DNA of 64,000 nt from Rhizodiscina lignyota (taxonomy: Eukaryota), in NCBI GenBank assembly GCA_010015805.1, contig ML978124.1, forward strand, positions 1,426,001 to 1,490,000. The letters run 5' to 3'. Shown here in pieces: positions 1 through 17,863 of this stretch. Made by a program: the position numbers and the translations under genes. Every line of letters starts with the position of its first letter. Within the stretch, counting starts at the first letter, position 1. The notes beneath the pieces were generated by a model. That model ran no database searches. It saw only the letters and a program-made list of their open reading frames with translations, and was not told the DNA's origin.

Positions 1-640
1 TAGTCCCATTGCCCATCCTGAGTATGATAGCAATGTCTTCCCGGGAAGGATATGCTGCAAGGAGAGCTTGCGAGACTTTTTCATATTTGCCTGCATCAGA
101 AGTGGAGGTTCTGGCGGGTGTGGGCGTCTGAGAAGCTGGCGTGCGAAATGCCGACGTCGAGTGATGTGCGCCTTCGTTTGCTTGAGGGAAACTTTCCTGG
201 AGAGATTTTTAGCAACCAGTGACGGAAGTTTGAGTGGTTGTGCCCACCGGCGAGAGCTCATTCAAGGACATGAACGGGGTGTGCTCAGAGTCAACAGGCG
301 TGGGAGCAGCAGGTCTAGGTCTTCGGCCTTCATCAGACGTTGACTGAGCTCCATCTCTTGCAGCACTATGATCGGCCTTCTCAACCAGCTGGCTTAGCAG
401 CGCTTCGACGCGTATAATGCGGCCGGCACTATCCTCTACCTGACTGGGCTCTTCAGGCAGCTCCTGACTGATGCACTTTGTACTGCGCCGCTGACAGGTG
501 ATGCACACTGCATCTGTGGCCGATGCAAACATGCACCGTACCTTTCTTCGCTTGCACTCCCAGCAGCTGTGCGTTCCCTTCCGCACTCTCCTGCGCTTGG
601 CTTGAGGTTCAAGGCCCTCATGTTGCTCGTCGGAAGCCAT
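1..640 (-). CDS. Zn(II)2Cys6 transcription factor, 5' part only (runs off the window start)
   Basis: RKGTHSCWECKRRKVRC...CITCQRRSTKC binuclear-cluster motif; probable intron at about 247-197 (GTGGGC...GCTAA...CCAG) continues the gene. Confidence 0.9.
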
Positions 641-1370: not shown

Positions 1371-2279
1371 TCAAGCGAAAAGGAGGCTGGGATTTTCAAC
1401 CCAGAACTTCTGCCACGTCGTGTCATCTGTTATCCACTCTCTCAGTTTCTGGATATGGGCCGCATTTGGAACCTCCCGAAAGCCTTCTACAGTCTCTAAG
1501 CGCTGCTTCTCTGTCATCCCCGTGCGCCCTTTCCCGAGCTGCGTGTGTGGCCAATCTGAGCCGAAGATAATCTGCGTCGGCCCTGCTTCAATGATGGCTT
1601 TTGCGAGAGGTGTCAAGGAGTCTATGCCCTCTGGGATGCCATTGTACAATCTCTCAAAGCCTGAGAGCTTGACCCATAGGCGCTTCTCTTTAACCAAGTC
1701 CAGGAACTTGCCGAATTCTTCCAACTTCTCCTCCCCCGGAAACGTGCCCCCAAAATGGTCGGCTACAAACTTGATCTTTGGATACGCACGAACTGTAGGG
1801 GCTAGATCAACCCAAGTCCTGAAGTCGCAGAATACATCCACGATCCACTCATGCCGTGAGTCTTGTGATAGTCGCTTCGCCAGAGCGTCAACCTCCTTGA
1901 TCAGCGGTTCCGAACTAGGCCGGCTCTTTGCCTCCCACGCCATCCTATGCAGGCGTGCACCTCGCACGCCAGCGGCATACAGGTGGTTGAGCTCGTCATC
2001 TGTGACGGTATCTGGGACAACCGTTGCAAGGCCGCGTAGCTTGTACCCATCGAGCTTCTTCTCTTCGCTAATCGCCCCGAGCAGAGGCTCAGCTGAATTC
2101 CCCTGCATCGACGCGTGCACAATGACAATGTTTTTGCAGCCGGTGACATCGTTTGGGTAATCTGTTATCAGAGCTGCTTTGGGGGTATACGTGCGTGGTA
2201 TTGCGTATGGGAATTTATCAGGCATGAACACATGAATATGGGTTTCCCAAGCCCCTTCTGGTACCAGTTGATTTCCCAT
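1371..2279 (-). CDS. Amidohydrolase_2 / COG3618 family (2-pyrone-4,6-dicarboxylate lactonase LigI-like), intronless
   Basis: Motifs WETHIHVF, AGVRGARL, DHFG, WVKLSG, FGSDWPHT, ENP; first ATG at 2279 (the ORF-track start at 2333 is TTG). Confidence 0.85.
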   Translation of the reverse strand: MGNQLVPEGAWETHIHVFMPDKFPYAIPRTYTPKAALITDYPNDVTGCKNIVIVHASMQGNSAEPLLGAISEEKKLDGYKLRGLATVVPDTVTDDELNHLYAAGVRGARLHRMAWEAKSRPSSEPLIKEVDALAKRLSQDSRHEWIVDVFCDFRTWVDLAPTVRAYPKIKFVADHFGGTFPGEEKLEEFGKFLDLVKEKRLWVKLSGFERLYNGIPEGIDSLTPLAKAIIEAGPTQIIFGSDWPHTQLGKGRTGMTEKQRLETVEGFREVPNAAHIQKLREWITDDTTWQKFWVENPSLLFA

Positions 2280-2567
2280 CTTCTTATTTACTTTCTCCTT
2301 TAATCTGTTCCTTTCAAGTGCTCGTGGACGCAATGGACCTTGATCCAGATGCTAAATGGGAAATAACAACCCGGGAGAAGCTTGGATACGTGTGTCTAAA
2401 ACCTTTCCAGGTTCCATGCGTGTGAGGATTTAGTGTACGGCGTTCTTGATCATTAGCATCTACCGCAACCACCCCCGCAACCGGGCATGGAAGATCATCA
2501 CCATCCTTGCGAAGTAGTCGGCGAAGTACAATGTTTGTTCGCCTTGTTTCACTGGCTCTAATTTCTG

Positions 2568-2584
2568 CGGAATGAAAGCCCCCG
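2568..2584 (+). promoter_or_regulatory. CGG-N11-CCG putative Zn2Cys6 site, copy 1 (CGG AATGAAAGCCC CCG)
   Basis: Lies in the amidohydrolase/transporter divergent promoter; matches copies at 6215 and 10400. Confidence 0.7.
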
Positions 2585-2937
2585 ATGCCAAGGCGTGCTA
2601 GACAGGGCAGTTCTCACGGAATTGAACAGACCGTGGTCTCATAAGTCATTGAAACTACAAGCCTTGCATACAGCTGTATGTAAGGAGGAGGAGGAGTACT
2701 GTAGTGCCTGCATACTGCCATGCCTGTGGCAAGCGTCCAACAACCCAGCCAACAACCTCGCACTGCAACCTATTCCCATGCTGAAGAACCCTTCTCCGCA
2801 TTTTACTATACGTAGTACATCGCAATGCTGATCAGGATAAAGTGTGGCAAGTACCTTGGACTTCAATTTCTTCTCGTCTCTCGTTATCATTTTGCTGCTG
2901 TCTCTTCAACTCGCTCTGTTCCATACGATAGTTCACG

Positions 2938-4527
2938 ATGGCGTTACTGCAAGACATCAAGACCATTCCTCGTGACTTTGCGGACGCTCTTCGCATGAAG
3001 CCAGTCCAGTACCTGGTCTGGTTTTGCTGCTGGGCTTGCTGGACCTTGGGGTCACTTGATTTCTATTTGCTTCCCTTCACCACGACGAACATGGCAACGG
3101 CATTCAAGGTTAAACAGACGAAGATTTCTGAAGCAAATACGACCTCGATGCTCTCACGTACCATTGGAGCGTTGATATTCGGGATTGCAAGCGATCAGTA
3201 TGGGCGAAAGATTCCATTGTTGATCGATCTTGTCGTTATGGGCGCTGTCACCCTCGCAAATGGGTTTCTCACGACGTATTCGCAGCTCGTCGGTGTGCGC
3301 TTTCTCTTCGGCGTTTGCTACGGCGGTACGTACGGTTTGGCAATGGCTGCGGTTCTCGAAGCGACACCTCAAAAGGCTAGAGGTATTGTCGCGGGCTCGA
3401 CGCAGCAGGGTTTCGCGGCCGGGTACCTGTTTGCGTCGGGTCTCCATCTGGCGATGAGCAAATACAAGTGGCAGGCCCTTTTCTGGCTCGGTGCTGGGCT
3501 CACAATCCCCGTATTCATCATTCGGCTTGTCACTCCGTCATACTCCGTTGTGGCAGAAGCTGTAAGAGACGCTGAAGGCATTCAACGGGTTACAGAGGCT
3601 GCGGCAGTCGGTGGTGAACTCTCGTTTTGGAAGAAGTTCAAGTTCGTCGCACGTCGTCATTGGGCCGTCTTTATATATGCTATCGGTATGTGAAGTCCTG
3701 AGTGGGCTATTAATGAACTGCTGACTCTGGTAAGTTTTGACGGCATGCTTCAACACTACTGGACATGGATCGATGGACCTGTACCCCACATTTCTTGTTA
3801 CCCAAAAGAAGCTCTCTGTTCTCCATGAGACATGGGTGACTTGCATACTCCAGATCGGAGGCATATCCGGTGGTATTGTCGGCGGCTTCTTGTCAAACCG
3901 CTTCTCTCCTCGGTGGGTTGGAGCGACGGCAGCACTAGCCATGGCACCATGGCTTCCGCTGTGGTGCTTGCCAAAGACGTGGAATCTCCTGGCACTTGGA
4001 GCATTCTTCTTCCAGTTCTTCTACGGTTGCGCGATTGGTAATCTGGGCAACATCATGCAGCAGCTCTGCCCGCATCCAGGTATCCGCGGTGCGTTTACTG
4101 GAGTTGCTTACAACTTGGGCAAGTGAGTATCACTACCTTGAAATTTGTGATAGTCGAAATCAGAGATTCTGACGAGATAATCAGCGCTATATCAAGTATT
4201 GCACCTACAATTGAAACTGCGCTAGGCGAGCGCTTCCCTACCGCCGATGGGACTCCCGATTATGCGAAGACTCAGATGATCCTCGTTGGTATTGTCATTG
4301 CGCTGCTCTCTCTGACCCTTGCGTGCATGCCCACGGGGAATATCAACAGGTATTGGGACAAAGAAGATCCGAATGCTGAGATCCCAATCCACGAAGCCAA
4401 GACTATGGATGACATGGCGATTGAGCCCCAGCCAAGGGAAGGACACAATGCGCCATATGGCGATAAGAAGGCTGACGAGATCGAGCAAGTTGAAGAAGTC
4501 CAGCTGCAGGACATGAAGAAGGTGTGA
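2938..4527 (+). CDS. MFS carboxylate/H+ symporter, JEN1/SHS family (3 exons)
   Basis: Hydrophobic TM pattern, SDQYGRK MFS motif, ARGIVAGSTQQGF, JEN1-like signature NTTGHGSMDLYPT, GVAYNLGN; introns at about 3686-3734 and 4123-4184. Confidence 0.88.
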
Positions 4528-4635
4528 TGGAAACGTATTTATTCATCAGGGCAATCTCGGCCAGGTGGAGGGTAAGGTATTCAAACCACTTCCTCTCAAA
4601 CGACCTGTCAGGCCCTTCCCAGAAGCGGCATTTTG

Positions 4636-5813
4636 CTAGTCTGTAGTACATATTATCTTGCCAGCATTGATGTTTGCCTCCATTCTTCTGTGAGCGTCGG
4701 CAACCTGCGTCCATGGATATACCTTGTCGATTGGTACTTTCATATTTCCAACCGCAAAGTGATACATGCACTTCTCGACGAAGGCATCTCGTAGATTGTT
4801 CTGATATTCGGCAGTCCGGTTCCTCAGCGTCGTCCCCTGGATCATCAGCCGCTTATTGAGGAACACTCGAAAGTCGAGGTCTGGGATAACACTGCCGCTC
4901 AGAGAGGCAACAATAACCATTTTCGCCTCCATCGCGGCCGATGCGACGTTTCGAAGCCAGTAGTCCTTTCCGACAAGATCGACGATCAAGTCGACTCCCC
5001 TGCCGTCGGTTTCCCGCTTTACAACCTCCGCGAAATCTTCCTTTTTGTAGTTTACGGCAACATCGGCGCCCAGGCTCTCGCACAACTTGCACTTCTCATC
5101 TGTTCCCGCGGTCGTAATAACCTTCGCTGCGCCGCCCCATTTAGCTATTTGAATGGCAGATGAGCCGACGCCGGAAGCACCGCCGTGGACGAGGACATTT
5201 TGGCCCTTCTGGAGATTACCGACTAGATATATGGCCTGCATGGACGTGAAGAATGTCTGAGAGTTTGATTAATGTGAATTCGAGATGGCATTGGTGCTGC
5301 ATCACGGCGCTGATGGGGCTGTACCTCTGGAATACCCGCGGCGGTCTCAAATGACATGTCCGGTGGCATGTGAATTAGCATCCTTTCTCGTACGGAAATC
5401 TTCTCTGCATACTACAGCAAAATATCAGAACTAGTTTACTCATCAGCTCCAGGGAAATCCACTCACTGCAGACCCATATGCAAGCCCGAAGACCCTGTCT
5501 CCGATTTTGAAGCCCAGCTTGCCTGCAGTGGAGAATCAGCAATTGAAGTGCAAACTCGCGAATAAGACGACCCACACTCAGGGCCCTTCTCCTCGACAAG
5601 TCCACTGAATTCGACTCCCAAGAGCGGTCCCGATTCTGGAAAGAGGACCAATGGATACACAGACTCTCGTTGCATGATATCCATTCTGTTCAGGCCGAAG
5701 GCTTTGATTCGAACAACAATGCGGTCCGTCTCCGCTACCGGATCTGGGTAGTTGTCGTCCATGAAGAGGTCATCGGCGGTGCCTTTGCGGCCTTTGATAT
5801 CAATTACCCTCAT
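4636..5813 (-). CDS. NAD(P)H quinone oxidoreductase, PIG3/zeta-crystallin MDR family (multi-exon)
   Basis: AFGLNRMDIMQR, LGVEFSG, VLVHGGASGVGSSAIQ, GTTLR, MEANINAGKI. Confidence 0.9.
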
Positions 5814-6214
5814 TCTGGCGATGTTTGGAGGAAGAAGAACGAGAGAAGGAAGGGTATGTGAGAGCTGATATGGACAACAAGCAAATTGACACCTTGAATG
5901 CAGGATAGAAAAAAAAATTAGGCTCGAAATTTGAGAAGGAATTTCGCATGCCGCACGCGTCGCTCAACTTCCCGGCCTATGACCTCGACGCGTCTCTACA
6001 TTAGCAAGCAACGGAAAGCCGCGACCCACGGCGCGAACTACCGTTACGCCACCGTACTAAGATACCTAGGTACATTCAATCGCCTCCTTAGACCTTGCAA
6101 CATGACCAGGGCTTTGGCATCTCTGCACAGCTGACCACATCAGGGAATATCAAGGGAATACCATCTCGATATGAGCATGTCTCCGACCCCGCGTTTGAGC
6201 AGAGTGCGGAGAAG

Positions 6215-6231
6215 CGGAACGAAGATCTCCG
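6215..6231 (+). promoter_or_regulatory. CGG-N11-CCG putative Zn2Cys6 site, copy 2 (CGG AACGAAGATCT CCG)
   Basis: Lies in the reductase/aldolase divergent promoter. Confidence 0.7.
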
Positions 6232-6431
6232 CTATACCGGAGAGAAGGTGACCGGTTTGCCTCAAACACCATGTACAGTAAGAGATATTGACTAGTTCAT
6301 GGTCGAGCGGAAAACAAAGATAAAGGACAGTCGGATTTTCCGAAACTTATCATATTAAAACCAAGTCTCAGTCACGAACGACAACAATTGTACTATCTCT
6401 AAAAGAACTTTAACATCAAATCACACTAAAC

Positions 6432-7390
6432 ATGGCACCAAGCCGGATCACCGCTGAGACTGAGGTTGAACCCGCAGTGATCAGACCGAAGCCAGTGGAC
6501 AAGTTCAAGGACGCATATTTTGAAGACGTCCACTCTCTTGGAGACAAAGCTGGCAAAGTCGTCATCCGGTCTCCCCCAAGATTCGATGATCCCTTAGACA
6601 GCAGGCAATACCAGAAGCAGCACCTTGCCGCAGCTTTCAGGGCCTTTGCAAGACAAGGATATGATGAGGGCGTTGCTGGACATATTTCTCTGCGAGACCC
6701 AATCAACCCAGGTATGCAATGAACACAAAAAGATTTGACAACGTAGAGCTCAATTGCTAACTCTCCCCAGAATGGTTTTGGATCAACCCTCTCTCTCAGC
6801 ATTTCTCGCAAATCCGCGTCTCCGACCTTGTGCTGGTCAATGACAAGGGTGAGGTCCAGCCAGAGGGCAACCAGGCCGCCATCAATGGCCCTGCTTTCTC
6901 CATCCATTCCGAAATCCACAAGGCTCGGCCTGACTTGAACGCCGCCTGCCACGCTCACTCTGTGTACGGCAAGGCCTTCTCCTGCTTTGGCCGTCCAATT
7001 GAAATGATCTACCAAGACGCCATTCGCTTCTACAACGACCTCGCGGTCTATCCCCGCTACGGCGGCACAGTGATATCCACCGAGGAAGGCGCCAGGATCG
7101 CAAAAGCCCTTGGACCAACCTGCCGCAGCGTCATCCTCCAGAACCACGGCATGATCACCTGTGGTAAGACCGTGGACGAGGCAGCGTTCCTGTTTATTGC
7201 CCTCGACCGCTGCTGTCATGCGCAGATGATGGCGAATGCCGCGAGTGGCCCGGATTGGCCGAAGATCTACATCGGGAAGGAAGAAGCTGAGATGACGCAC
7301 AAGAAGAGTGGCAACTCAAGTAAGATGTGGTTGGCGTTCCAGCCATACTATGACCAGGAAGTGCAGACGGATCCTGGTTTGCTTGAGTAG
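6432..7390 (+). CDS. Class II aldolase/adducin-head family protein (MUG14/NovR-like), 2 exons
   Basis: [40 protein letters not shown] metal-binding His; intron at about 6712-6769. Confidence 0.9.
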
Positions 7391-7681
7391 AGAGCTTGCG
7401 AATGATAGAGTCCAAATCTGCCGGTTGGAAGTGACCGAAGCCAGCAATGCGGTTGTTTTTGTACTTTCTTCTCCAATGTCTTACTGAGGCATAATATGGC
7501 ATGACACCAAAACTCTCTTTACTTTTAACACAGCTCTCGGTAGCAAAATGATGGGATCCAGTGAGTCGGATCGCTACCATAGAGTTTGAACTTTTAATAC
7601 AGTTACGAGGCAGTGTGCCTTCGGCTGAGAAGGGCATCAAATAAACTTCGAGTCGGACCAGTCTTGCAAGATCGCGCGACG

Positions 7682-9875
7682 TTATGCTGGGCCGTTCAGG
7701 AAATTCTCGTTCATGAAGCCGAAAAGTAGATCCTGGCTAATTGTCTCAAAGCCAGTGAGATCCTGCAGCTGTGCCATATCCCCAAATGGGAACGTTTCTG
7801 GCACCAGCGGTGAGGTGGTCTCAAACTGGACGGTAGACGGCGTAGGAAGATTTGGCAAGGAGTCGGCTACATTCGAGCGTTAGTCATTGGCATACTTGCT
7901 TCTCATTGGTGGCGAAGAAGGGGTGACTTACCTTCAAACGTCGGAATACCATTGTCCGCCATTAGCTTCCTGATAATATTTGCCAAGTCTACAACTCCGC
8001 CGTTCGGCAGCGACAAAATGTCCAGGAACTTCAGACAGGTGAGGAGAAGTGAGGTGTACTTCTCGCTTTCACTACCTTTGTTCTCGGCCGTCGCGAGGTT
8101 GCGTACATGTATCGAGCAAGCTACGTATACTGCGTAACTCAGCAGGTACGATGCCCGGCGTAGTGGATACGCTGATTGATATGAAAGAACAAGGTTCGTA
8201 ATATTTCTAGCAGCAGCAGTGCACTTCCTCCAGGAGTTTGCCGGGATCTTTGTGGAACGGAGATCGCTGTTTGAGATGAATGGTCGATGCAGCAAGATGA
8301 TACATGCGTGGTACGTCGTCAGCAAGATGAGGACGTTCGGAGCCGGTACATTCGGCAGCTGCGTCGAAGGATTTGATGATGGTTCGAAGACTAGATGCGA
8401 CGGGAGGTTGCGATACCATGAGGAAAGGCTGCTGTCAATGGAATCAAGCTCGGCCTGAGTATTGCTTACGGTTGATCCAACAATATAAAACTGATTGATG
8501 ATCCTTGTCATAACCATGGAAAGCGTGCAAATATTCTGGAAGGTAGATATGGAGTAGATTGGCGTCGCGGCTTTGTTTGAGACGTTGGGGCCGGCATCGG
8601 GATTTTGAGGGTCGATGTAAGGAGTCCAAAGCTCCAACTCTTCTATAGTGTCCATGAAATTGCGGCTCACGTTTGCATCACGCAATTCAATGAAGACCGA
8701 GCGGCCGTGATACAGAGATTGCAGTTTATCAACAACAAACGCACCCCAAAATACGCGTCGGCGGATTTCAACAGTCTCCGCATTTTCTTGACTCTCTTTA
8801 ATGTCAAGGTGTAATCCAAGATCATACACCATGCGAAACGCGTAGCCGGTGTAAAGCCAACCTTTTGAGCTCGAGCCTCTTGCGTTAAACGTTGAGCCCA
8901 ACAGAATGAGACCGATAATGGTTGGAATGCTTGAGTATGTGAGAAGAGACTGCTGTGCAAGCAGCTCGTCACAACGAGCGAAGAATCGTTTATCGCTGAC
9001 GACTTCTGGTCGCTCTGAGTACTTGCTTGAACTTGCAAATACTGCGTTGAGGAGGAAATCAGTGCAGTAAGATCCACCTTCCACAAGCTCCCTCATGAAT
9101 AGCGGTCTGTAGGTAAGATGGAACGTATGATGCTGCCGATTCCAATGCAAATCCAAAAGATGAAGTGCTAAATCGGCAGGGACTCCACGAATATAGTTGA
9201 GGCGTCTAAGTCCGTGCTCTTTCTGGAGTTGCAAGGCAGCATTTGCTGTGAGTTGGAATCGCAAATGCTCGGGCACAGAGGTTTCCATATCCATTTTGTC
9301 GTGCGATAATAGTGCCTCGAGTGCGGACGGTGGCCGCACCGCCGGAGAGCCTGCCATAGGCGGACTTTGGAAACTAGGTTCTTCCGGTGCAATCCATACT
9401 GGAGAGCTCTTGTCGTCTTCATGTTGCGAACTTGACATTGCTCGACTACGCGCCTTGCCGTCCGCATTGGCTTCTGAAGCTGATGCCGTCGTCGACGGCG
9501 GTGAGGGGAGCTGAACTGTGCCATCGTTGACCGTAATATTTTCCAACGCTGAGATCCTCTCTTCTTCGCTACCGTTCTTAAGGCGAATTAAAACATCTTT
9601 GAATGCATCTCGCTCCCTCTGGAGAGCGTGTATAATAGCTTTCGATGGTCTAATAACAAGTCAATCACATGATACTATGGTTCCTCTCAGGGGTATCAAT
9701 CTGCATACCTTTTCTTGGGAGGCTCAATTACATAAACGCACTCGCGGCCATTCGCATTGCATGAACCACAACTTGGTCGTTTCGTATCGCATTTGATTTT
9801 GCGGATTCGACAGAATTGGCATGCTCGGACCGAACTCCGGGGCAGCGATGAGTTTGAAGGAACTCCCGAAGACAT
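7682..9875 (-). CDS. Zn(II)2Cys6 transcription factor with fungal-specific TF (middle homology) domain, NirA-like; 3 exons
   Basis: Exon 1 (9875-9709, not in the ORF track) encodes ACQFCRIRKIKCDTKRPSCGSCNANGREC; it splices in frame to ORF 7903-9546 (GWLYTGYAFRMVYDLGLH, RRRVFWG); last exon ends at TAA 7682. Confidence 0.9.
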
Positions 9876-10399
9876 CGGAATTCAATTGTCCAGTTTATTG
9901 AGCATCGAATGTCTCCGCTGTAAGGGGTCTGTAGCAGAGCACGAACTGAAACTCGCCGCTCGAATTGGTCCGGCGCGAGAACACAACCCGCTGGACAGTT
10001 GATGCTGTGTGGCGGTGGACTTCTCTCCAATCAAGGATCCTGTCTGTCGATGTTGCTCCGATGGACAGAAAAGTTCCGTTGAGCTATCCACAGTGTTGGT
10101 ATAAGGGTTGAGTTCTTCCAATTGATGTTGCTCAATGGAATATGAAGTTTTGGGTCAAAGAATCAATTAAGCGTTTCTGAATCGCGGTGTTCTGAACGAA
10201 GTGGAGTGGAAGTATACAGCCGACGCTATTGCGGGCACCGCTGTGGCCGATTTCCTGCACTCTCAGAGCGAAAAATCGCATTACCCCGCAAGTCAGCGGA
10301 CAGAAATCCCCACAGCAGAGAGGTCCCAAGGTCCTCAAGTGATGTTCGCGTTTGGTTAGACCGGTTGCGCTCTCTGGGTGCCCCGGTTAGCATGCTGAG

Positions 10400-10416
10400 C
10401 GGAGCGAAACCCTCCG
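10400..10416 (+). promoter_or_regulatory. CGG-N11-CCG putative Zn2Cys6 site, copy 3 (CGG AGCGAAACCCT CCG); degenerate copy at 10297-10313
   Basis: Lies in the TF/dehydrogenase divergent promoter. Confidence 0.7.
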
Positions 10417-10600
10417 TAAACTTCGAGCCACCCCCAGCACTCTATCCAAAACACGGAGATATCCAGCTTCGAGCTCCCAAGGAGGCAGAGCACGTGTGCT
10501 GCAGGAGCAGATAGAATTCCGATGTAAAAACCTTTGCACTGAAGACCGCGATTGATTGGCTCTCTGCATTTAGATCGACTTGGACAACTCTTCAACAGCC

Positions 10601-11676
10601 ATGGCCGCCAATCGGACGTGCACTATCGCCATCATAAGTGTGGGCGAGATGGGACTGGGCATTGGCCAGCTGCTTAAGGCGCACAAGTATAGAGTCGCCA
10701 CATACGCTGCCGACAGAAGGTATGATGAGATGCATTGTACGCAGTCCAGGCCTAATCGATAGTTGCAGTAAGGGGACTCAAGATAGAGCCTTCTCTGCTG
10801 GAATCGAGCTATTACCTTCACTAGAAGCACTCTTTGACGAAAGCGACTACCTGCTATCCATAGTGCCCCCGCGAGATGCCCTGTCTACTGCAAATCGCAT
10901 CGCTTTGGCAGCGTCCAAGTGCAATCAGAGAAAGGAGCCATTATACTATTTGGATTTGAACGCTGTATCACCGCGAACAGCTCGGGAAACCGAAGAGTTG
11001 TTCCGCCAATATTCAAATATATGCCTAATTGATGGCGGCATTATTGGAGGTGTCCCCTATCAGAAGAAGGCTGCCGACTCCACCGCAGGAGACCCGGACT
11101 GGCATTGTCCATCACTTATGGTCTCTGGGCCAACGCAAGTTCCGGATCAGAGCCTGGCAAAGATTCTCAATGTCCGACATGTCGGAGATACCATTGGGCC
11201 TGCTACTGGATTGAAGATGTGCTTTGCAGTAACAACAAAGGGATTCATCTCGTTGGCGATAGAGTCATTCGTAACAGCACACCGACTGGGAGTTCTACCC
11301 GAACTAAAAGAGTATCTTGGTGAGTACAACGCATCCACGCTGAAAATTGCGGAGAAAGGCCTTGTTACAATGCCGCCGAAAGCCTACCGTTGGGTTGGGG
11401 AGATGCTGGAAATATCGCGAACAATGCATGAAGATGGAGGGTTTGATCCAACAATGTGCGTATTACAGTCTTGTGAGCTCAAGGAAATGCCCGTTAGATG
11501 ACGAGATGACCAGATTCGAAGGCGTAAGCGAAGTATATAGATTTGTTGCTGACGAGTCTGAGCTGGGAAAAGAAAAGCCAGGCGCCAGAGTCCGTGGGAA
11601 GACGGTCGAAGATGTAGTCGAGCTATTGAGTCAAGCCATGGAGCAGAGAAGCCCCGATGTCAACAAGACCACATAG
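10601..11676 (+). CDS. NAD(P)-dependent beta-hydroxyacid / 6PGD-like dehydrogenase with DUF1932-type C-terminus (3 exons)
   Basis: IAIISVGEMG Rossmann start, YLDLNAVSP, IDGGIIGG, ATGLKMCFA, MPPKAYRWVGEMLEI. Confidence 0.8.
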
Positions 11677-12090
11677 ACAATATGGGCCAATTCTGAGCAG
11701 TTTTTATGGCATCCGAAGTCAAAACAAGGCGACATTTGATGCACTACAGCAAATGGGTCAAACCCAATTTCGCGCTGAGCCGAAAGGAGCATGAATATTG
11801 CCCTGAATTGAAGTATCTGGGAGCCAGAGCACCCAAAATTGATGCGTTGTATGACGAAGATAAGAAGAGAGGTTATTGAGCAAAAGCGAGATTACATTCC
11901 AGCCTGTATCGTGGAAAAGCAGAGCGTCGGCACGTGACCGCGTGATTTATCGGCATTCTCCGTTGCCGCCTGCTAGGCTGGTCGCGTCTAACTCGGCGCG
12001 TCATCTCTGTTGCTTCAACTCTCAGAGACATCACCAATTCGTCCCAAAACCTTCCATCGAGAAACGAAAACTGTCAACGACTCGGTGGCC

Positions 12091-13850
12091 ATGCCTGCGT
12101 ATGTATATCATTGCTTAGTCTGCACAATGACTAACAGTTATCTCAGGCCAGGCGACCAACACAAGGCAATCAACAATCCATTCCACGATGAGAGGCCACG
12201 CATCAACGAGTACACTGCACAGGAGATAGCAACACTGCAAAGTCGGCTGGACAAACAGCTCGGGCCAGAATATATCTCGACTCGCCCTGGTGCAGGTGGA
12301 AGCAAGGTTCATTATTTGGCGGCTGAGAAAGTCATAAATCTTGCAAACGAGGTCTTTGGGTTTAATGGTTGGTCAAGCTCAATACAAAATGTTCAGATTG
12401 ACTTCGTGGGTATCACATGCTCCTTCCCTTTTGCCTACTGACCAAAACCGCAGGTCGATGAAAGTCAAAGCACCGGCAAAATCAGCCTCGGCCTCTCGAC
12501 AATTGTGCGGGTCACACTGAAGGATGGAGCTTTTCACGAGGTATGGGTGGAATACGCTTTCCATGGTTTTACGCATTTTCTAACATTGTGAAGGATATCG
12601 GATATGGTCAAATTGAAAACTGCAAAGGCAAGGCAGCCGCGTTCGAGAAAGCCAAGAAGGAGGCGGCGACAGACGCGTTGAAAAGAGCACTGCGGAATTT
12701 CGGAAACGTACTCGGAAACTGTCTTTACGACAAAGACTATCTCCAGAAAGTAACGAAGCTCAAACATCAGCCGGCTAAATGGAATGTGGACAAGCTCCAC
12801 AGGCACCCAAGCTACGCGGCAGCGCGAAATGACTCGCCATCTGAGGTCCCGACAGAGCCTATTGGAGGCTCTAGAACTGGAAGCCTACAATCCAAAGCTA
12901 CCAACAGCACTGACTTTGAGGATGATTTTGGAGGAAACCTCTTTGAAGGGGTTGATCTCGACTCAGCACGGCCAGACGAAGTCGTCCTCGACACCACCTC
13001 TGCCGCTTCAGGCGACATCTCAGACCCTCGACAATCGGATGGTGCACAAAGGACGTCTCACAATTCCGAGCTGAAGCATCAAGTGCCTAGAGTGCAGTCA
13101 ATGCCCGCACTGCAGCCACCTGAACCTGGACCTGGACCACAGAATTTCCAACCTCAAAAAGCCTCCTTGCCACGACAACAGCAGCCACCACCGCAGAATA
13201 TGCACTTGACCTCGAATGGTGAAACTATTCGTAACCGCTCATTAGCAGTACAGCCAGAGGCGAACCAGGCCCATAGAATGCAGCAAACGTCTCATCCGCA
13301 GGGCAACAATACCTCAAATACCCCACCGAACCGTAACCTCCACCAACAACCACCCAACCAACAGAATGAAAAGCAAGGGGAGTCGGTCGGTTTCGTATCT
13401 GGCCGCGCTGCGGAGCTTATGCAGAACCATGGCGCACCACATGCACCATTACCTCCCAATGCACCAGCTTTCAACCCGCATCAGGATAGTCCTTCGTTAA
13501 GACGCACAAATGGAGTCGATCATAACAAGTCCTTACCAATCAACAGGAGTGCCCTGACGAGCGTGGCACAGAATGGCAATCCCAACGCACAGCCTCAACA
13601 GCAGCAACCTCCTCAACCTCGAGGAAACTTTGTCAATCCGCAGGCAGACGCGAACCGAAGGATCGGAATGCCTAGCGTTGCTCACAGTCCGCTCGCGAAT
13701 AGAGGTGGTTACAAACCACCGGGACCTGCGATCCAGAAACGCGGGCCCGATGGAATGCCGCGGCCCCCTCTTGCAGATATGAGCAATGTAATGTTGGATG
13801 CCAATGGAGGTGAGGGGGTGGATGCGAAGAGGCCCAAGATTGCAAGTTAA
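12091..13850 (+). CDS. RAD52: DNA repair/recombination protein Rad52 (Rad22)
   Basis: [59 protein letters not shown]; 3 introns. Confidence 0.97.
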
Positions 13851-14124: not shown

Positions 14125-15169
14125 TCAACCATTGACAATTACGCCACCGTTTGCGTGTATCACCTGTCCACTGACCGATGAGCTGTCCGTACTTGCCAGA
14201 AACACAAAACAGCAAGCAATCTCGCTCGGCTGACTCGGCCTTCCCATAGGACTTGTGAACTGATCCTGTGCCTTGTGGTTCATCGTTGCCGGTATCAGTG
14301 GCGTCCAGACTGGTCCTGGCGCAACGGCATTGACGCGAATGCCCCGTCCAACGTACTGATTCGACAGACCGCGTGTGAAGGAGACAATAGCGCCCTTGGT
14401 GCTGGTGTAATCGAGCAGGTCAGGACGGCCGATGTAGGCATTGATACTGGCGTTATTGATGATGGTGTCTCCCTTTTTCATGTGCGGGAGGATGTATTTG
14501 GAGAGGTAGAAGAAGGGGTGAATGTTCGTGTTGAATGTGCGCTCCCACTGCTCTCTGGAGATGCTGTCAGCTTCGTGATGATTCATGTAGTCAAAAATCG
14601 TGAAGGCCTACTCTGAGAGGTCTTGAATGTCCTGGACCATCATCTGATACGCGTGGTTGTTCACAAGAACGTTAATTGCTCCCATTGCCTCGAGCGCCTT
14701 CTCGACCGCGGCCTTGCAGTTCTTCTTGTCCGTCAAATCGGTGGAGAAGAGGTGGCACTTCCTGCCTTTTTCTTCAACCTTCTTCTTCGTCTCTTGAGCG
14801 TCTTCCTCTTCCTGCGGCAGGTATGCGATAAAGCTGTCGGCACCCTCCATCGCGAAGAGGATCGCAATGGCACGGCCGATGCCAGAATCGCCACCTGTTA
14901 TCAATGCCTTCTTGCCTTCGAGTTTGCCTGCCGCTTTATAGAGCTGGTAGCCGCCATCTTCGGTCGGGACATGTTCGGACTGTGGAGTGGGACCTTTGAG
15001 CTCAGATTGGAGTCCTGGTGGCTGCTGGTCTTGGATGGGAACTTTGTGACCTAGACGCGAAGTCAATTAGTCATTTCTATCAACCTTTACTTGTTTTGAC
15101 GCACTTACCAGACTCGAACTGGGAGTCTGAGCCGGTCACAGACTTAGCAACGTTCTTCGCGGTGTCCAT
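14125..15169 (-). CDS. Short-chain dehydrogenase/reductase, YghA / general-stress-protein-39 type
   Basis: ITGGDSGIGRA, LDYTSTKG (YxxxK), IRVNAVAPGPVWTPLIP; 2 introns. Confidence 0.92.
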
Positions 15170-15754
15170 ATTGAGAGATTTCAGAAGCTGTTTGGGTTGG
15201 AGAAGCTATGGAGTCTCTTGAGAAAGAAATTGAATAGGATATGGAGCGAAACGGAAATGGATACTTTAAGCCTCTGAAAATTTATGACATATTTCGATGC
15301 GAAGCGCGTCGTACTTGTGACATCACGATCGATCGGCATCGGAATCCGACATTGCCATGCAGATCACTTTCACATGCTGCTTGGGGGGATCCATAATGAA
15401 GCGTTTGTCGCAAAGGTATCGGAATCCATCAATGTTGAAAACACGAAAGCTCGATGAGCGTGGCTGCAGCAAGGCCGGAGAGACGACTCGCTCAATATCT
15501 CCTTCTGGTTAGCGCAGCACCTTGTATATCAAGGTAGCCCACACTTCGACTCAGCCCGACCAGATTTGCACCACCACTACTCAAGTCTTTCAGTTTAAAA
15601 TGAATCCCGTGTAAGTCTGGTTCCAGTCCTCGAGAACATTTACAGTCTATCTCGATCTCTGCCTGTCGCCTCAGCTCTTCCCAGCGAATCTCAAGTCAGT
15701 CAGTTCAACTGCATATTATCAGGCCTCCAAACGGGCTCCTATTCTTCTAAAAGC

Positions 15755-17863
15755 ATGACCGGGCAATATCAATTTACATCTCTCGAGCCACGTCGTTTTC
15801 GTCTTCTCAGTGTATTACCTGGCACTGTTCCCACGCCTTTGGTTTGCTCCCTCTCAGATAACTCACTGGACGATCCTCCCGCATATGAGGCGCTTTCATA
15901 TGCCTGGGGCTCTGCCGAGTTCTCTGAGCCAAATTTAACGCTTAATGGGTACCAAATTTGCATCATGACTGAACTGGAGAAAGCCCTCATTCGACTTCGG
16001 CACCCAGACGCTGTACGAACCCTGTGGATTGACGCCATTTGTATCAATCAGGCTAACACTCAAGAACGTAATGCTCAAGTCACAATTATGACTGATGTTT
16101 ATAGAGCTGCGGAGCGTGTGATTGCATGGCTGGGTGAAGAGACTGCCGATAGCAAAAAAGCGTTTACCTTTCTCAAAGAGATGGCAATGCACAAGAAGTC
16201 CGCATTGCGCCACACTTGGATGGATGGCACTAGAATGGGAAGCGATACCAGCTCTGAATGCGGAGATGGCAGTACGGACAGGCAGCATGTGCAACCTACC
16301 GACTATCAAAGCGATGACGACGAACTATCGAACTGGCAATTGAACAGGCAGAGCGATGACGAAGACGAGAGCGGAGAGGTCGAAGATGAAAGCCAGAGTG
16401 AGAGCAGTGTGGATGAAATGCCAGACAAGGAAAGTGAGGATAAGATATCAAGTCAGAAGAGAAGCGACGAACCGAACCGGGAGGACATAATAAATGAAAT
16501 GATGTCGAATCGGAGGCAGCAGGGACACCACCTTGTAACCGGAATTCCAGAACTCTACTATGACGGTGATATGGTGTATGACTCTTTCTTCGAAAACAAT
16601 CAGCAGGCAAACTGGAAAGCCCTGGACAACTTGTTGGCACGGCCGTGGTGGTCACGAACATGGATCGTCCAAGAAGTATGGCATTCATCGAATTGCTTGT
16701 TACAGTGCGGCAGGTCTACTCTCAAATGGAAGACTTTCGAAAAAGCCATGGACTACCAAGAAGGTTGGGATGACATGGGAAACATGATCAAGCAAACGAA
16801 GAGATGGAAACATTGGCCCCTGCTCAAGAGAAGGTATGGGCTCGCAATACATCTTTCGCAGAAACGCCTGCTTGGTGCGAAGCTCTCTGATCTATTGTGG
16901 AATATGTGGGACAGAGAAGCAACAGACCCAAGGGACAAAGTCTTCGCAGTTCTGGGTTTGGTTGGGCATGGAAGTCGAGAGGTTCTTCCGCTCCCTGATT
17001 ACTCCAAGAGCGTACAACAAGTATTCCAAGAGGTCGGGGTACATATCATACAGCAAGACAAGAACTTGGACATTCTACTCGCAGCAAATGGTCTAGAGAG
17101 ACGAAACGGACTGCCTTCATGGGTTCCAGATTGGAGACGGGATGCCAACGATGTCCGGCCCGCATTATTTATCAACGGGGCACGTATGCGAATGCTCTGC
17201 TATTTTTCTGGTTCTGCAGACATGGTTCTTCTACACGGCCATGGATACTCTGCATCAGGAGACTCAGAGGTCTGGACCCAGTTTAGTGAAGACCTGGCAA
17301 CCCTCCATGTTCGCAGCTTCCTCCTGGGGACTGTCGTCAGTGTGGGACCTGTGTGTGGCGGCAACAGGAAAGCTGCCACTATCATCAAAGCAGCTCGGTC
17401 AACCATAGCGAGCTCGAATACTCTAGCAAGCCCTCAGCGAGCGCTTGCCGTGTCGAAACAAAAGCTCGGTCTAATTCTCAGGGCTGGGTCTTATGTGAAT
17501 AACGGCAGGGATCCTATGCCAGGCCAAAAAGAAGATCAAGTCATCGAAAACATCATGGATAAGCGGCGCTTCTTCATTACCAGCGCTGGCCATCTCTGTA
17601 TTGGAGCAGCTCGAACACAACCAGGGGACAATGTGCGCATCATTGCTGGCTGCAATTTCCCTATGGTGTTGCGGCCCGAGGGGGATAGCTATAGCCTCGT
17701 TGGCGAGGCTTACGGTGAGACATATCTGTGATAATTATTTCACCTATCACTAATTGTCATGATGATAGTCCACGACAACATGGCCGGTGAGGCTTTGGGT
17801 CAGCGAAATTCTCAGGGCAAGCTTGAGAAAGAACCACAGTGGTCGGAGATACGTATACGATAA
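15755..17863 (+). CDS. Heterokaryon incompatibility (HET) domain protein, HET-6-like
   Basis: YEALSYAWG, LWIDAICINQ, ERNAQV, RPWWSRTWIVQE, ATDPRDKVFA, LPSWVPDW, LVGEAY|VH; terminal intron at about 17715-17768. Confidence 0.92.

Follow-up and report, generated by a model that had tools for sequence, protein, structure and literature searches.

Gal4-type CGG-N11-CCG elements in the three divergent promoters of a six-gene cluster of Rhizodiscina lignyota, and their recurrence beside orthologous regulators in other fungi

Examination of a 64,000-nucleotide stretch of the genome of the ascomycete Rhizodiscina lignyota (assembly GCA_010015805.1, contig ML978124.1, positions 1,426,001 to 1,490,000 of the forward strand), hereafter the window, revealed five exact copies of the element CGG-N11-CCG in the three divergent promoters of a six-gene cluster of catabolic type. 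One of the six genes, here called gene E, encodes a Zn2Cys6 regulator, and the element recurs upstream of its orthologs in other fungi. With inverted CGG triplets exactly 11 bp apart, the element has the geometry of a Gal4-type upstream activating sequence (UAS). It is enriched in the candidate target promoters and conserved in orthologous promoters, as befits a site of this type, although five of the twelve ortholog loci are without one. We propose that it is probably bound by a homodimer of the gene E product, through which the three divergent pairs, and with them the regulator gene itself, would be controlled together.

Pfam and NCBIfam scans of the window gave six genes arranged in three divergent pairs:

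Gene A, 1371..2279, minus strand: Amidohydro_2 hydrolase, closest to LigI and 4-sulfomuconolactone hydrolases.
Gene B, 2938..4527, plus strand: major facilitator superfamily (MFS) transporter of the sialate / aromatic-acid:H+ symporter type; two introns were read in the sequence.
Gene C, 4636..5813, minus strand: PIG3-family NAD(P)H quinone oxidoreductase (ADH_N + ADH_zinc_N).
Gene D, 6432..7390, plus strand: class II aldolase/adducin family protein, closest to TqaM and NovR.
Gene E, 7682..9875, minus strand: Zn2Cys6 + Fungal_trans regulator.
Gene F, 10601..11675, plus strand: DUF1932-containing NAD(P)-dependent dehydrogenase-like protein.

The promoters shared by these pairs lie at 2280-2937 (A/B), 5816-6431 (C/D) and 9876-10600 (E/F), 1,999 bp in total. 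Sites were found in each of them, and one more with both extended half-sites within the coding sequence of the regulator:

2567-2584, A/B promoter: GCGGAATGAAAGCCCCCG, containing an exact CGG-N11-CCG (2568..2584) with CGGA on its left half.
2617..2633, A/B promoter: second exact CGG-N11-CCG.
6214-6231, C/D promoter: GCGGAACGAAGATCTCCG, containing an exact CGG-N11-CCG (6215..6231) with both extended halves, CGGA and TCCG.
6238..6254, C/D promoter: second exact CGG-N11-CCG, 23 bp start-to-start from the site at 6215.
10399-10416, E/F promoter, the regulator's own: GCGGAGCGAAACCCTCCG, containing an exact CGG-N11-CCG (10400..10416) with both extended halves.
10296-10313, E/F promoter: GCGGACAGAAATCCCCAC, a degenerate copy (element 10297..10313) with the left CGGA whole and CAC as right triplet.
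10062..10078, E/F promoter: CGGA-N9-TCCG with one mismatch (TGGA...TCCG), weak and possibly due to chance.
9876..9892, touching the ATG of the regulator in its presumed 5' leader: one-mismatch copy (CGGA...TCCA), weak and possibly due to chance.
7942..7958, regulator coding sequence near the end of exon 2: exact CGGA-N9-TCCG, which may be due to chance or an intragenic site.

A sequence-only reading of the window had listed three GCGG...CCG elements and the degenerate fourth copy, all of which are present where it placed them. It had set the three at about 185-355 bp upstream of the plus-strand ATGs, in agreement with the distances of 354, 201 and 185 bp measured from the site ends of the elements at 2567, 6214 and 10399 to the ATGs at 2938, 6432 and 10601. 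Its three sites are real, but its count fell short: the promoters hold five exact sites, those at 2617 and 6238 having been overlooked. The orientation shared by the three elements, to which it had drawn attention, carries little meaning for a near-palindrome. On the plus strand, CGGA forms the left half of all five exact promoter sites, and TCCG the right half of two (6215 and 10400). Further one-mismatch copies of CGGA-N9-TCCG start at 5937 and 10013. The remaining six CGG-N11-CCG sites of the window are distributed between the regulator coding sequence (7942 and 9328), open frames of at least 311 amino acids (three sites) and a position outside long frames (43628).

The backgrounds used to judge enrichment of the element were the remaining 52 kb of the window and some 630 kb of fungal loci. 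Five of the 11 sites of the window fall within the 1,999 bp of divergent promoters (binomial P 1.2e-5). In 20,000 shuffles of the three promoters that preserved dinucleotide composition, five sites were never reached (mean 0.29, maximum 4); 12 of the 20,000 had one or more sites in every promoter. The enrichment is specific to both orientation and spacing: among 84 combinations of CGG and CCG (N0-N20) counted in the three promoters, CGG-N11-CCG alone reaches five, the runner-up being CCG-N15-CCG with four and the others giving two or fewer.

The extent of the conserved unit was determined by counting every trinucleotide-gap-trinucleotide dyad with gaps of 0-20 and strands merged, the window beyond 12 kb serving as background. 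Among 25,813 dyads in the three window promoters, CGG-N10-TCC ranked first (11 found, 0.50 expected, Poisson 8e-12, uncorrected) and CGG-N11-CCG third (5 found, 0.19 expected, Poisson 2e-6, uncorrected). When the promoters of two orthologous loci described below, L004 and L010, were pooled with those of the window (nine promoters, 40,369 dyads), CGG-N10-TCC again came first with 22 found against 1.94 expected, followed by CGG-N11-CCG with 12 against 1.02, each of them occurring in eight of the nine promoter regions from the three organisms. Since these two dyads stand at the top of the ranking, the half-site is CGGA/TCCG, and the conserved unit takes in the base beside each triplet, giving CGGA-N9-TCCG.

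This adjoining base, position 4 of the half-site, is A in 46 of the 62 half-sites of 31 promoter sites gathered across species, against 24 of 90 for the other CGG-N11-CCG sites of the same sequences (Fisher 9e-9); with the loci L017 and L018 left out, the promoter figure becomes 35 of 50 (9e-7). The inner spacer of the 31 sites carries almost no information. The sequence-only reading had held the spacer to be as conserved as the triplets, which is true across species of the base adjoining each triplet but not of the 18-mer consensus that it proposed. As a conserved feature this consensus was rejected: in the window it matches only the three founding sites, and 632,067 bp of related fungal loci hold no match. 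Exact CGGA-N9-TCCG occurs three times in the window, always in the cluster region (two promoter sites and the one in the regulator coding sequence), and 14 of its 27 window matches with up to one mismatch lie in the first 11.2 kb. The A/T extension is missing from all four CGG-N11-CCG sites of the window beyond the cluster region. An origin of the shared element by repeat or duplication was also considered and ruled out, as no longer repeat joins the three promoters; the element is thus not a duplication relic.

Alignment of regulator orthologs allowed us to collect 80 loci from metagenome contigs. Conservation in orthologous promoters had been named beforehand as a check on the co-regulation proposal, and the N11 triplets do recur beside orthologous regulators and enzymes. 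The sequences of up to 1 kb that precede the regulator in 12 ortholog loci, 10,744 bp together, contain 16 CGG-N11-CCG sites, against 1-6 at each of the other 20 spacings, and 7 of the 12 loci have at least one. When L017 and L018, both close to L016, are set aside, 10 sites remain, compared with a mean of 2.7 and a maximum of 6 (P 5e-4), and sites occur in 5 of the 10 loci. Site density is 1.49/kb upstream of the regulator and 0.40/kb in the rest of those loci. In an annotation-free count over 14 ortholog loci (119,986 bp), CGGA-Nx-TCCG is most frequent at x = 9, where 10 sites are counted; the other values of x give 0-6.

One of these loci is L004, a Cadophora-like sequence whose flavoprotein is 93% identical to a Cadophora protein, and which is identical to L005 and L047 over the examined stretch. 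Orthologs of F, A, C, E and D are found there in a rearranged order, together with a mitochondrial carrier gene and a FAD_binding_2 gene encoding the flavoprotein, and six of the 12 CGG-N11-CCG sites of the locus fall within its four promoter regions. In L010, where A, E and F are present, one site lies upstream of A. The sites of the individual loci are as follows:

L004, 3447 and 3506: upstream of F.
L004, 5412: upstream of A.
L004, 8940: between C and E.
L004, 13809 and 14044: between D and the flavoprotein gene.
L001, 8768 and 8813: between the flavoprotein gene and the regulator.
L002, 4414: between the flavoprotein gene and the regulator, the sole site in 10.5 kb.
L016, L017 and L018: three sites each between the flavoprotein gene and the regulator.
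L006, 348: upstream of the flavoprotein gene.
L006, 4438: between a Fe-ADH gene and the regulator.
L011, 4411, 4667 and 4698: upstream of the flavoprotein gene.
L013, 2653 and 2827: between an MFS gene and the regulator.

At about 80% nucleotide identity, L016, L017 and L018 show the sites as conserved islands. One site is the same in all three; another retains CGGA and TCCG around a diverged spacer, in surroundings of 60% mean column identity.

The 7682-9875 gene, called a transcription factor in the sequence-only reading, is a Zn2Cys6 factor by the domain scans: exon 1 carries Zn_clus (Pfam; 9711-9875, minus strand) at 44.4 bits against a cut-off of 21, and the main exon carries Fungal_trans. 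As read from the sequence, the gene is made up of exon 1 (9875-9709), an intron of 59 nt (9708-9650, GT...AG) and exon 2 from 9649, with another intron near 7900. The public Rhizodiscina lignyota record, of 563 amino acids, is 100% identical to gene E over exon 2, but the model begins inside that exon and is without the Zn_clus domain with which full-length orthologs start. The public gene model of the regulator is hereby corrected by addition of the DNA-binding exon. Database labels of the orthologs, 'NirA' or 'xylanolytic activator domain', are both automatic.

A search of the PDB with the DNA-binding exon of gene E returned Gal4 chains as best matches (E 7e-7), then Hap1, Lac9, Ppr1 and Put3; the match to Gal4 is limited to the DNA-binding region. 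Residues 12-75 of the Aspergillus ortholog P0007 align with residues 8-71 of Gal4 without a gap, a stretch that runs from the zinc cluster through the linker into the dimerisation helix, and the distance from CVY to LKN, counted on the spliced reading, is 33 residues in the gene E protein, equal to that of P0007. Homology therefore suggests a linker and coiled coil of Gal4-like length, which would fit the 11-bp spacing. For binding, Gal4 is reported to require a spacing of exactly 11 bp between two inverted CGG triplets (PMC10250231), and the motif obtained for CLR-2 of Neurospora by chromatin immunoprecipitation sequencing (ChIP-seq) is given as CGGN11CCG, nearly identical to that of Gal4 (PMC4620465). 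On grounds of homology, the geometry predicted for the gene E protein is the geometry found.

The presence of five promoter sites and their recurrence beside the same regulator gene in distant fungi make it very probable that these are the binding sites of that regulator. In the mechanism that we propose, a homodimer of the gene E product would sit on CGGA-N9-TCCG in the manner of Gal4, each zinc cluster reading one CGG and the linker and coiled coil setting the 11-bp spacing. With all three promoters occupied, the five structural genes would be turned on in concert and the regulator would feed back on its own gene. The sequence-only reading had proposed such a co-regulation of all six genes, and this interpretation is supported by all computational tests made; binding and a need for the sites in induction are what we infer from them. 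Likewise we infer physical contact, the dimer state, activation rather than repression, and the inducer, which the enzyme families would lead one to guess to be a tricarboxylic or lactone-type organic acid.

Several observations weigh against this reading. Over the whole window CGG-N11-CCG is not enriched, with 11 sites found against 10.63 expected and 55 of 100 shuffles reaching 11, and neither is CGGA-N9-TCCG with up to one mismatch (27 against 23.4). Five of the 12 ortholog loci have no site upstream of the regulator, namely L003 (241 bp available), L009 (503 bp), L010, L014 and L015, and in L010 the short spacer between A and E contains no CGG-N11-CCG. The Poisson values of the dyad count are uncorrected for the number of dyads; in L004 alone, CGG-N10-TCC ranks second and CGG-N11-CCG sixth, with an unrelated dyad, CCC and CGC without a gap, above both. 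The 31 cross-species promoter sites were picked by position after being seen, so that the position-4 test is the independent part of that evidence. Finally, CGG-N11-CCG is common to other Zn2Cys6 factors such as Gal4 and CLR-2, and loci of paralogous regulators are also rich in N11 sites. As the geometry is shared by several such factors, the motif alone does not name its binder.

This last point leads to the strongest of the alternatives, which we nevertheless regard as unlikely: that the sites are regulatory and bound by another Zn2Cys6 protein, either the product of a second Zn_clus gene that adjoins the cluster (212-640, minus strand) or a global factor resembling Gal4 or CLR-2. CLR-2 is reported to bind CGGN11CCG at about 60% of its 114 ChIP-seq regions (PMC4620465), so that the geometry is not unique to one factor, and at the loci of paralogous regulators N11 is counted 178 times against roughly 74-149 at other spacings. 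However, the DNA-binding region of the second factor has no tblastn match (E <= 1e-5) in L004 or L010, two loci that have kept the sites, and its own upstream region (641-1370) contains no CGG-N11-CCG. The sites instead track gene E orthologs through varied gene contexts, and in seven of the 12 loci they stand immediately 5' of the regulator, a pattern that a global factor of the CLR-2 type would not explain. In addition, the cluster genes include no carbohydrate-active enzymes and none of the plant cell-wall enzymes that PMC4620465 gives as targets of CLR-2.

Slightly less probable still is that the sites are functional while gene E represses, or works with a partner, and only some of the five sites matter. 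The direction of regulation is unreadable from sequence, the paired sites, 23-103 bp apart, would suit cooperative or multi-protein assemblies, and the one-mismatch copies at 9876, 10062 and 5937 may be counted on the same side. On the other hand, neither the window nor L004 showed a linked gene of repressor type. Cluster-linked factors with Zn2Cys6 and Fungal_trans domains are mostly activators, which also counts against repression. A chance or compositional clustering of CGG and CCG in GC-poor promoters, devoid of function, would suit the window-wide counts given above, but is effectively excluded by the shuffles, none of which reaches five sites, by the enrichment of the inverted N11 arrangement alone, by the lack of a longer repeat between promoters and by the recurrence of the arrangement at orthologous promoters in other fungi, where position 4 independently favours A.

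Paralogous regulators at 35-45% identity (L019, L026, L038/L039, L045, L063 and L073-L075) also have CGG-N11-CCG within about 250 bp upstream of the DNA-binding exon. The sites in L038, L039 and L045 have G in place of A by the triplet (CGGG...CCCG). These sequences hint that self-regulation through N11 sites may extend to the wider regulator family.

The second Zn_clus gene is cut by the left edge of the window. In the region 5' of it (786-850) stand a perfect palindrome, CCGCCG-ACT-CGGCGG (792-806), and, at about 822-848, two CGAGTTTTCGG-like units in tandem. At the right border of the cluster stands a Rad52-like DNA repair gene (12010-13850), read from its translation outside the Pfam scan. 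Within the cluster, the class II aldolase-fold enzyme is unusually conserved: exon 2 of gene D is 87% identical to its A. niger homolog, and the same value holds between the window (6830-7387) and L004 (12342-12893). For comparison, the regulator of the window shares about 57% identity with that of L004 and 53% with the cluster representative of A. niger; the other enzymes range from 45 to 62%.

Regulator and aldolase genes, or regulator and flavoprotein genes, are close to each other by locus tag in public genomes:

Leptodophora: regulator and aldolase adjacent, ACEPPN_006729/006730.
Pseudogymnoascus australis: regulator and aldolase adjacent, ACLOAV_002722/002723.
Pseudogymnoascus sp. 05NY08: regulator and aldolase adjacent, VF21_00727/00726.
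Penicillium cataractarum: regulator and aldolase adjacent, N7496_007155/007156.
A. niger: regulator and aldolase adjacent, An16g00430/An16g00420.
A. tubingensis: regulator and aldolase adjacent.
Cadophora sp. M221: regulator IFR05_001273, aldolase 001276, flavoprotein 001277.
Kalmusia: regulator N0V90_012469, flavoprotein 012468.

Outside the window, the most constant neighbour of the regulator is the FAD_binding_2 gene (L001, L002, L004, L006, L011/L012 and L016-L018), the copies of the other loci being 58-62% identical to that of L004. The L004 copy (14238-16055) scores 485 bits on the NCBIfam TcuA model NF006130, above the cut-off of 369, and 233 bits on a second TcuA model, TIGR02485, below the cut-off of 372.55. 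No homolog of this TcuA-like flavoprotein was found within the 64-kb window. In L004 the mitochondrial carrier gene (1283-2289) shares a two-site promoter region with F, and an MFS gene (1-654) adjoins; both neighbours fit a traffic of organic acids.

Gal4 sites lie in the divergent GAL1-GAL10 promoter of yeast, and the cluster described here resembles that system in having several sites per shared divergent promoter. As in the Gal4 UAS of S. cerevisiae, inverted CGG triplets are 11 bp apart (PMC10250231), and the predicted binder is a Zn2Cys6 protein colinear with Gal4 through zinc cluster, linker and dimerisation helix. In contrast to the yeast system, the targets are unrelated to galactose, the regulator is encoded inside the cluster with sites in its own promoter, and no partners of the Gal80/Gal3 type were seen here; the likeness rests on the DNA-binding region. 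The cellulase regulator CLR-2 of Neurospora crassa is likewise a Zn2Cys6 factor of a filamentous ascomycete with a CGGN11CCG motif, but the targets described for it are dispersed cellulase and transporter genes (PMC4620465), whereas those proposed here form a compact catabolic cluster.

In bacteria, the genes for tricarballylate utilisation comprise the TcuA dehydrogenase together with a transporter and a regulator. The fungal loci are similar in that the flavoprotein beside the regulator in other fungi passes NF006130 and the window cluster includes a carboxylate-type MFS transporter. They differ in that the fungal flavoprotein falls below the TIGR02485 cut-off, the window is without a TcuA homolog, and the type of regulator and the other enzymes are not the same. 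In the main texts searched, supplementary tables lying outside the search, nothing was found linking a fungal tricarballylate-dehydrogenase-like gene to a regulator. An16g00410 to An16g00440 are named in none of these main texts either, and supplementary tables could hold expression data on them.

The kind of element described here is textbook, and Gal4-type sites for a cluster-linked Zn2Cys6 factor will be no surprise to the specialist; among the main texts searched, no publication was found on this regulator, its site preference or its cluster. The value of the finding lies in a concrete cis-element conserved across fungal classes, together with its candidate regulator, for a cluster on which no publication was found and which occurs in well-studied fungi, with regulator An16g00430 and aldolase An16g00420 in A. 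niger. Tentatively, and at rather less than even odds, gene E and CGGA-N9-TCCG may delimit an autoregulated regulon conserved in four Pezizomycotina classes (Dothideomycetes, Leotiomycetes, Eurotiomycetes including Aspergillus niger, and Sordariomycetes), with a TcuA-like flavoprotein and the conserved aldolase-fold enzyme as core of an undescribed pathway for a tricarballylate-like or lactone-type polycarboxylic acid, while the wider paralog family may share the N11 geometry and self-regulation and differ at the base adjoining the triplet. The pathway is thereby made testable, its regulon and substrate being approachable through the regulator and CGGA-N9-TCCG.

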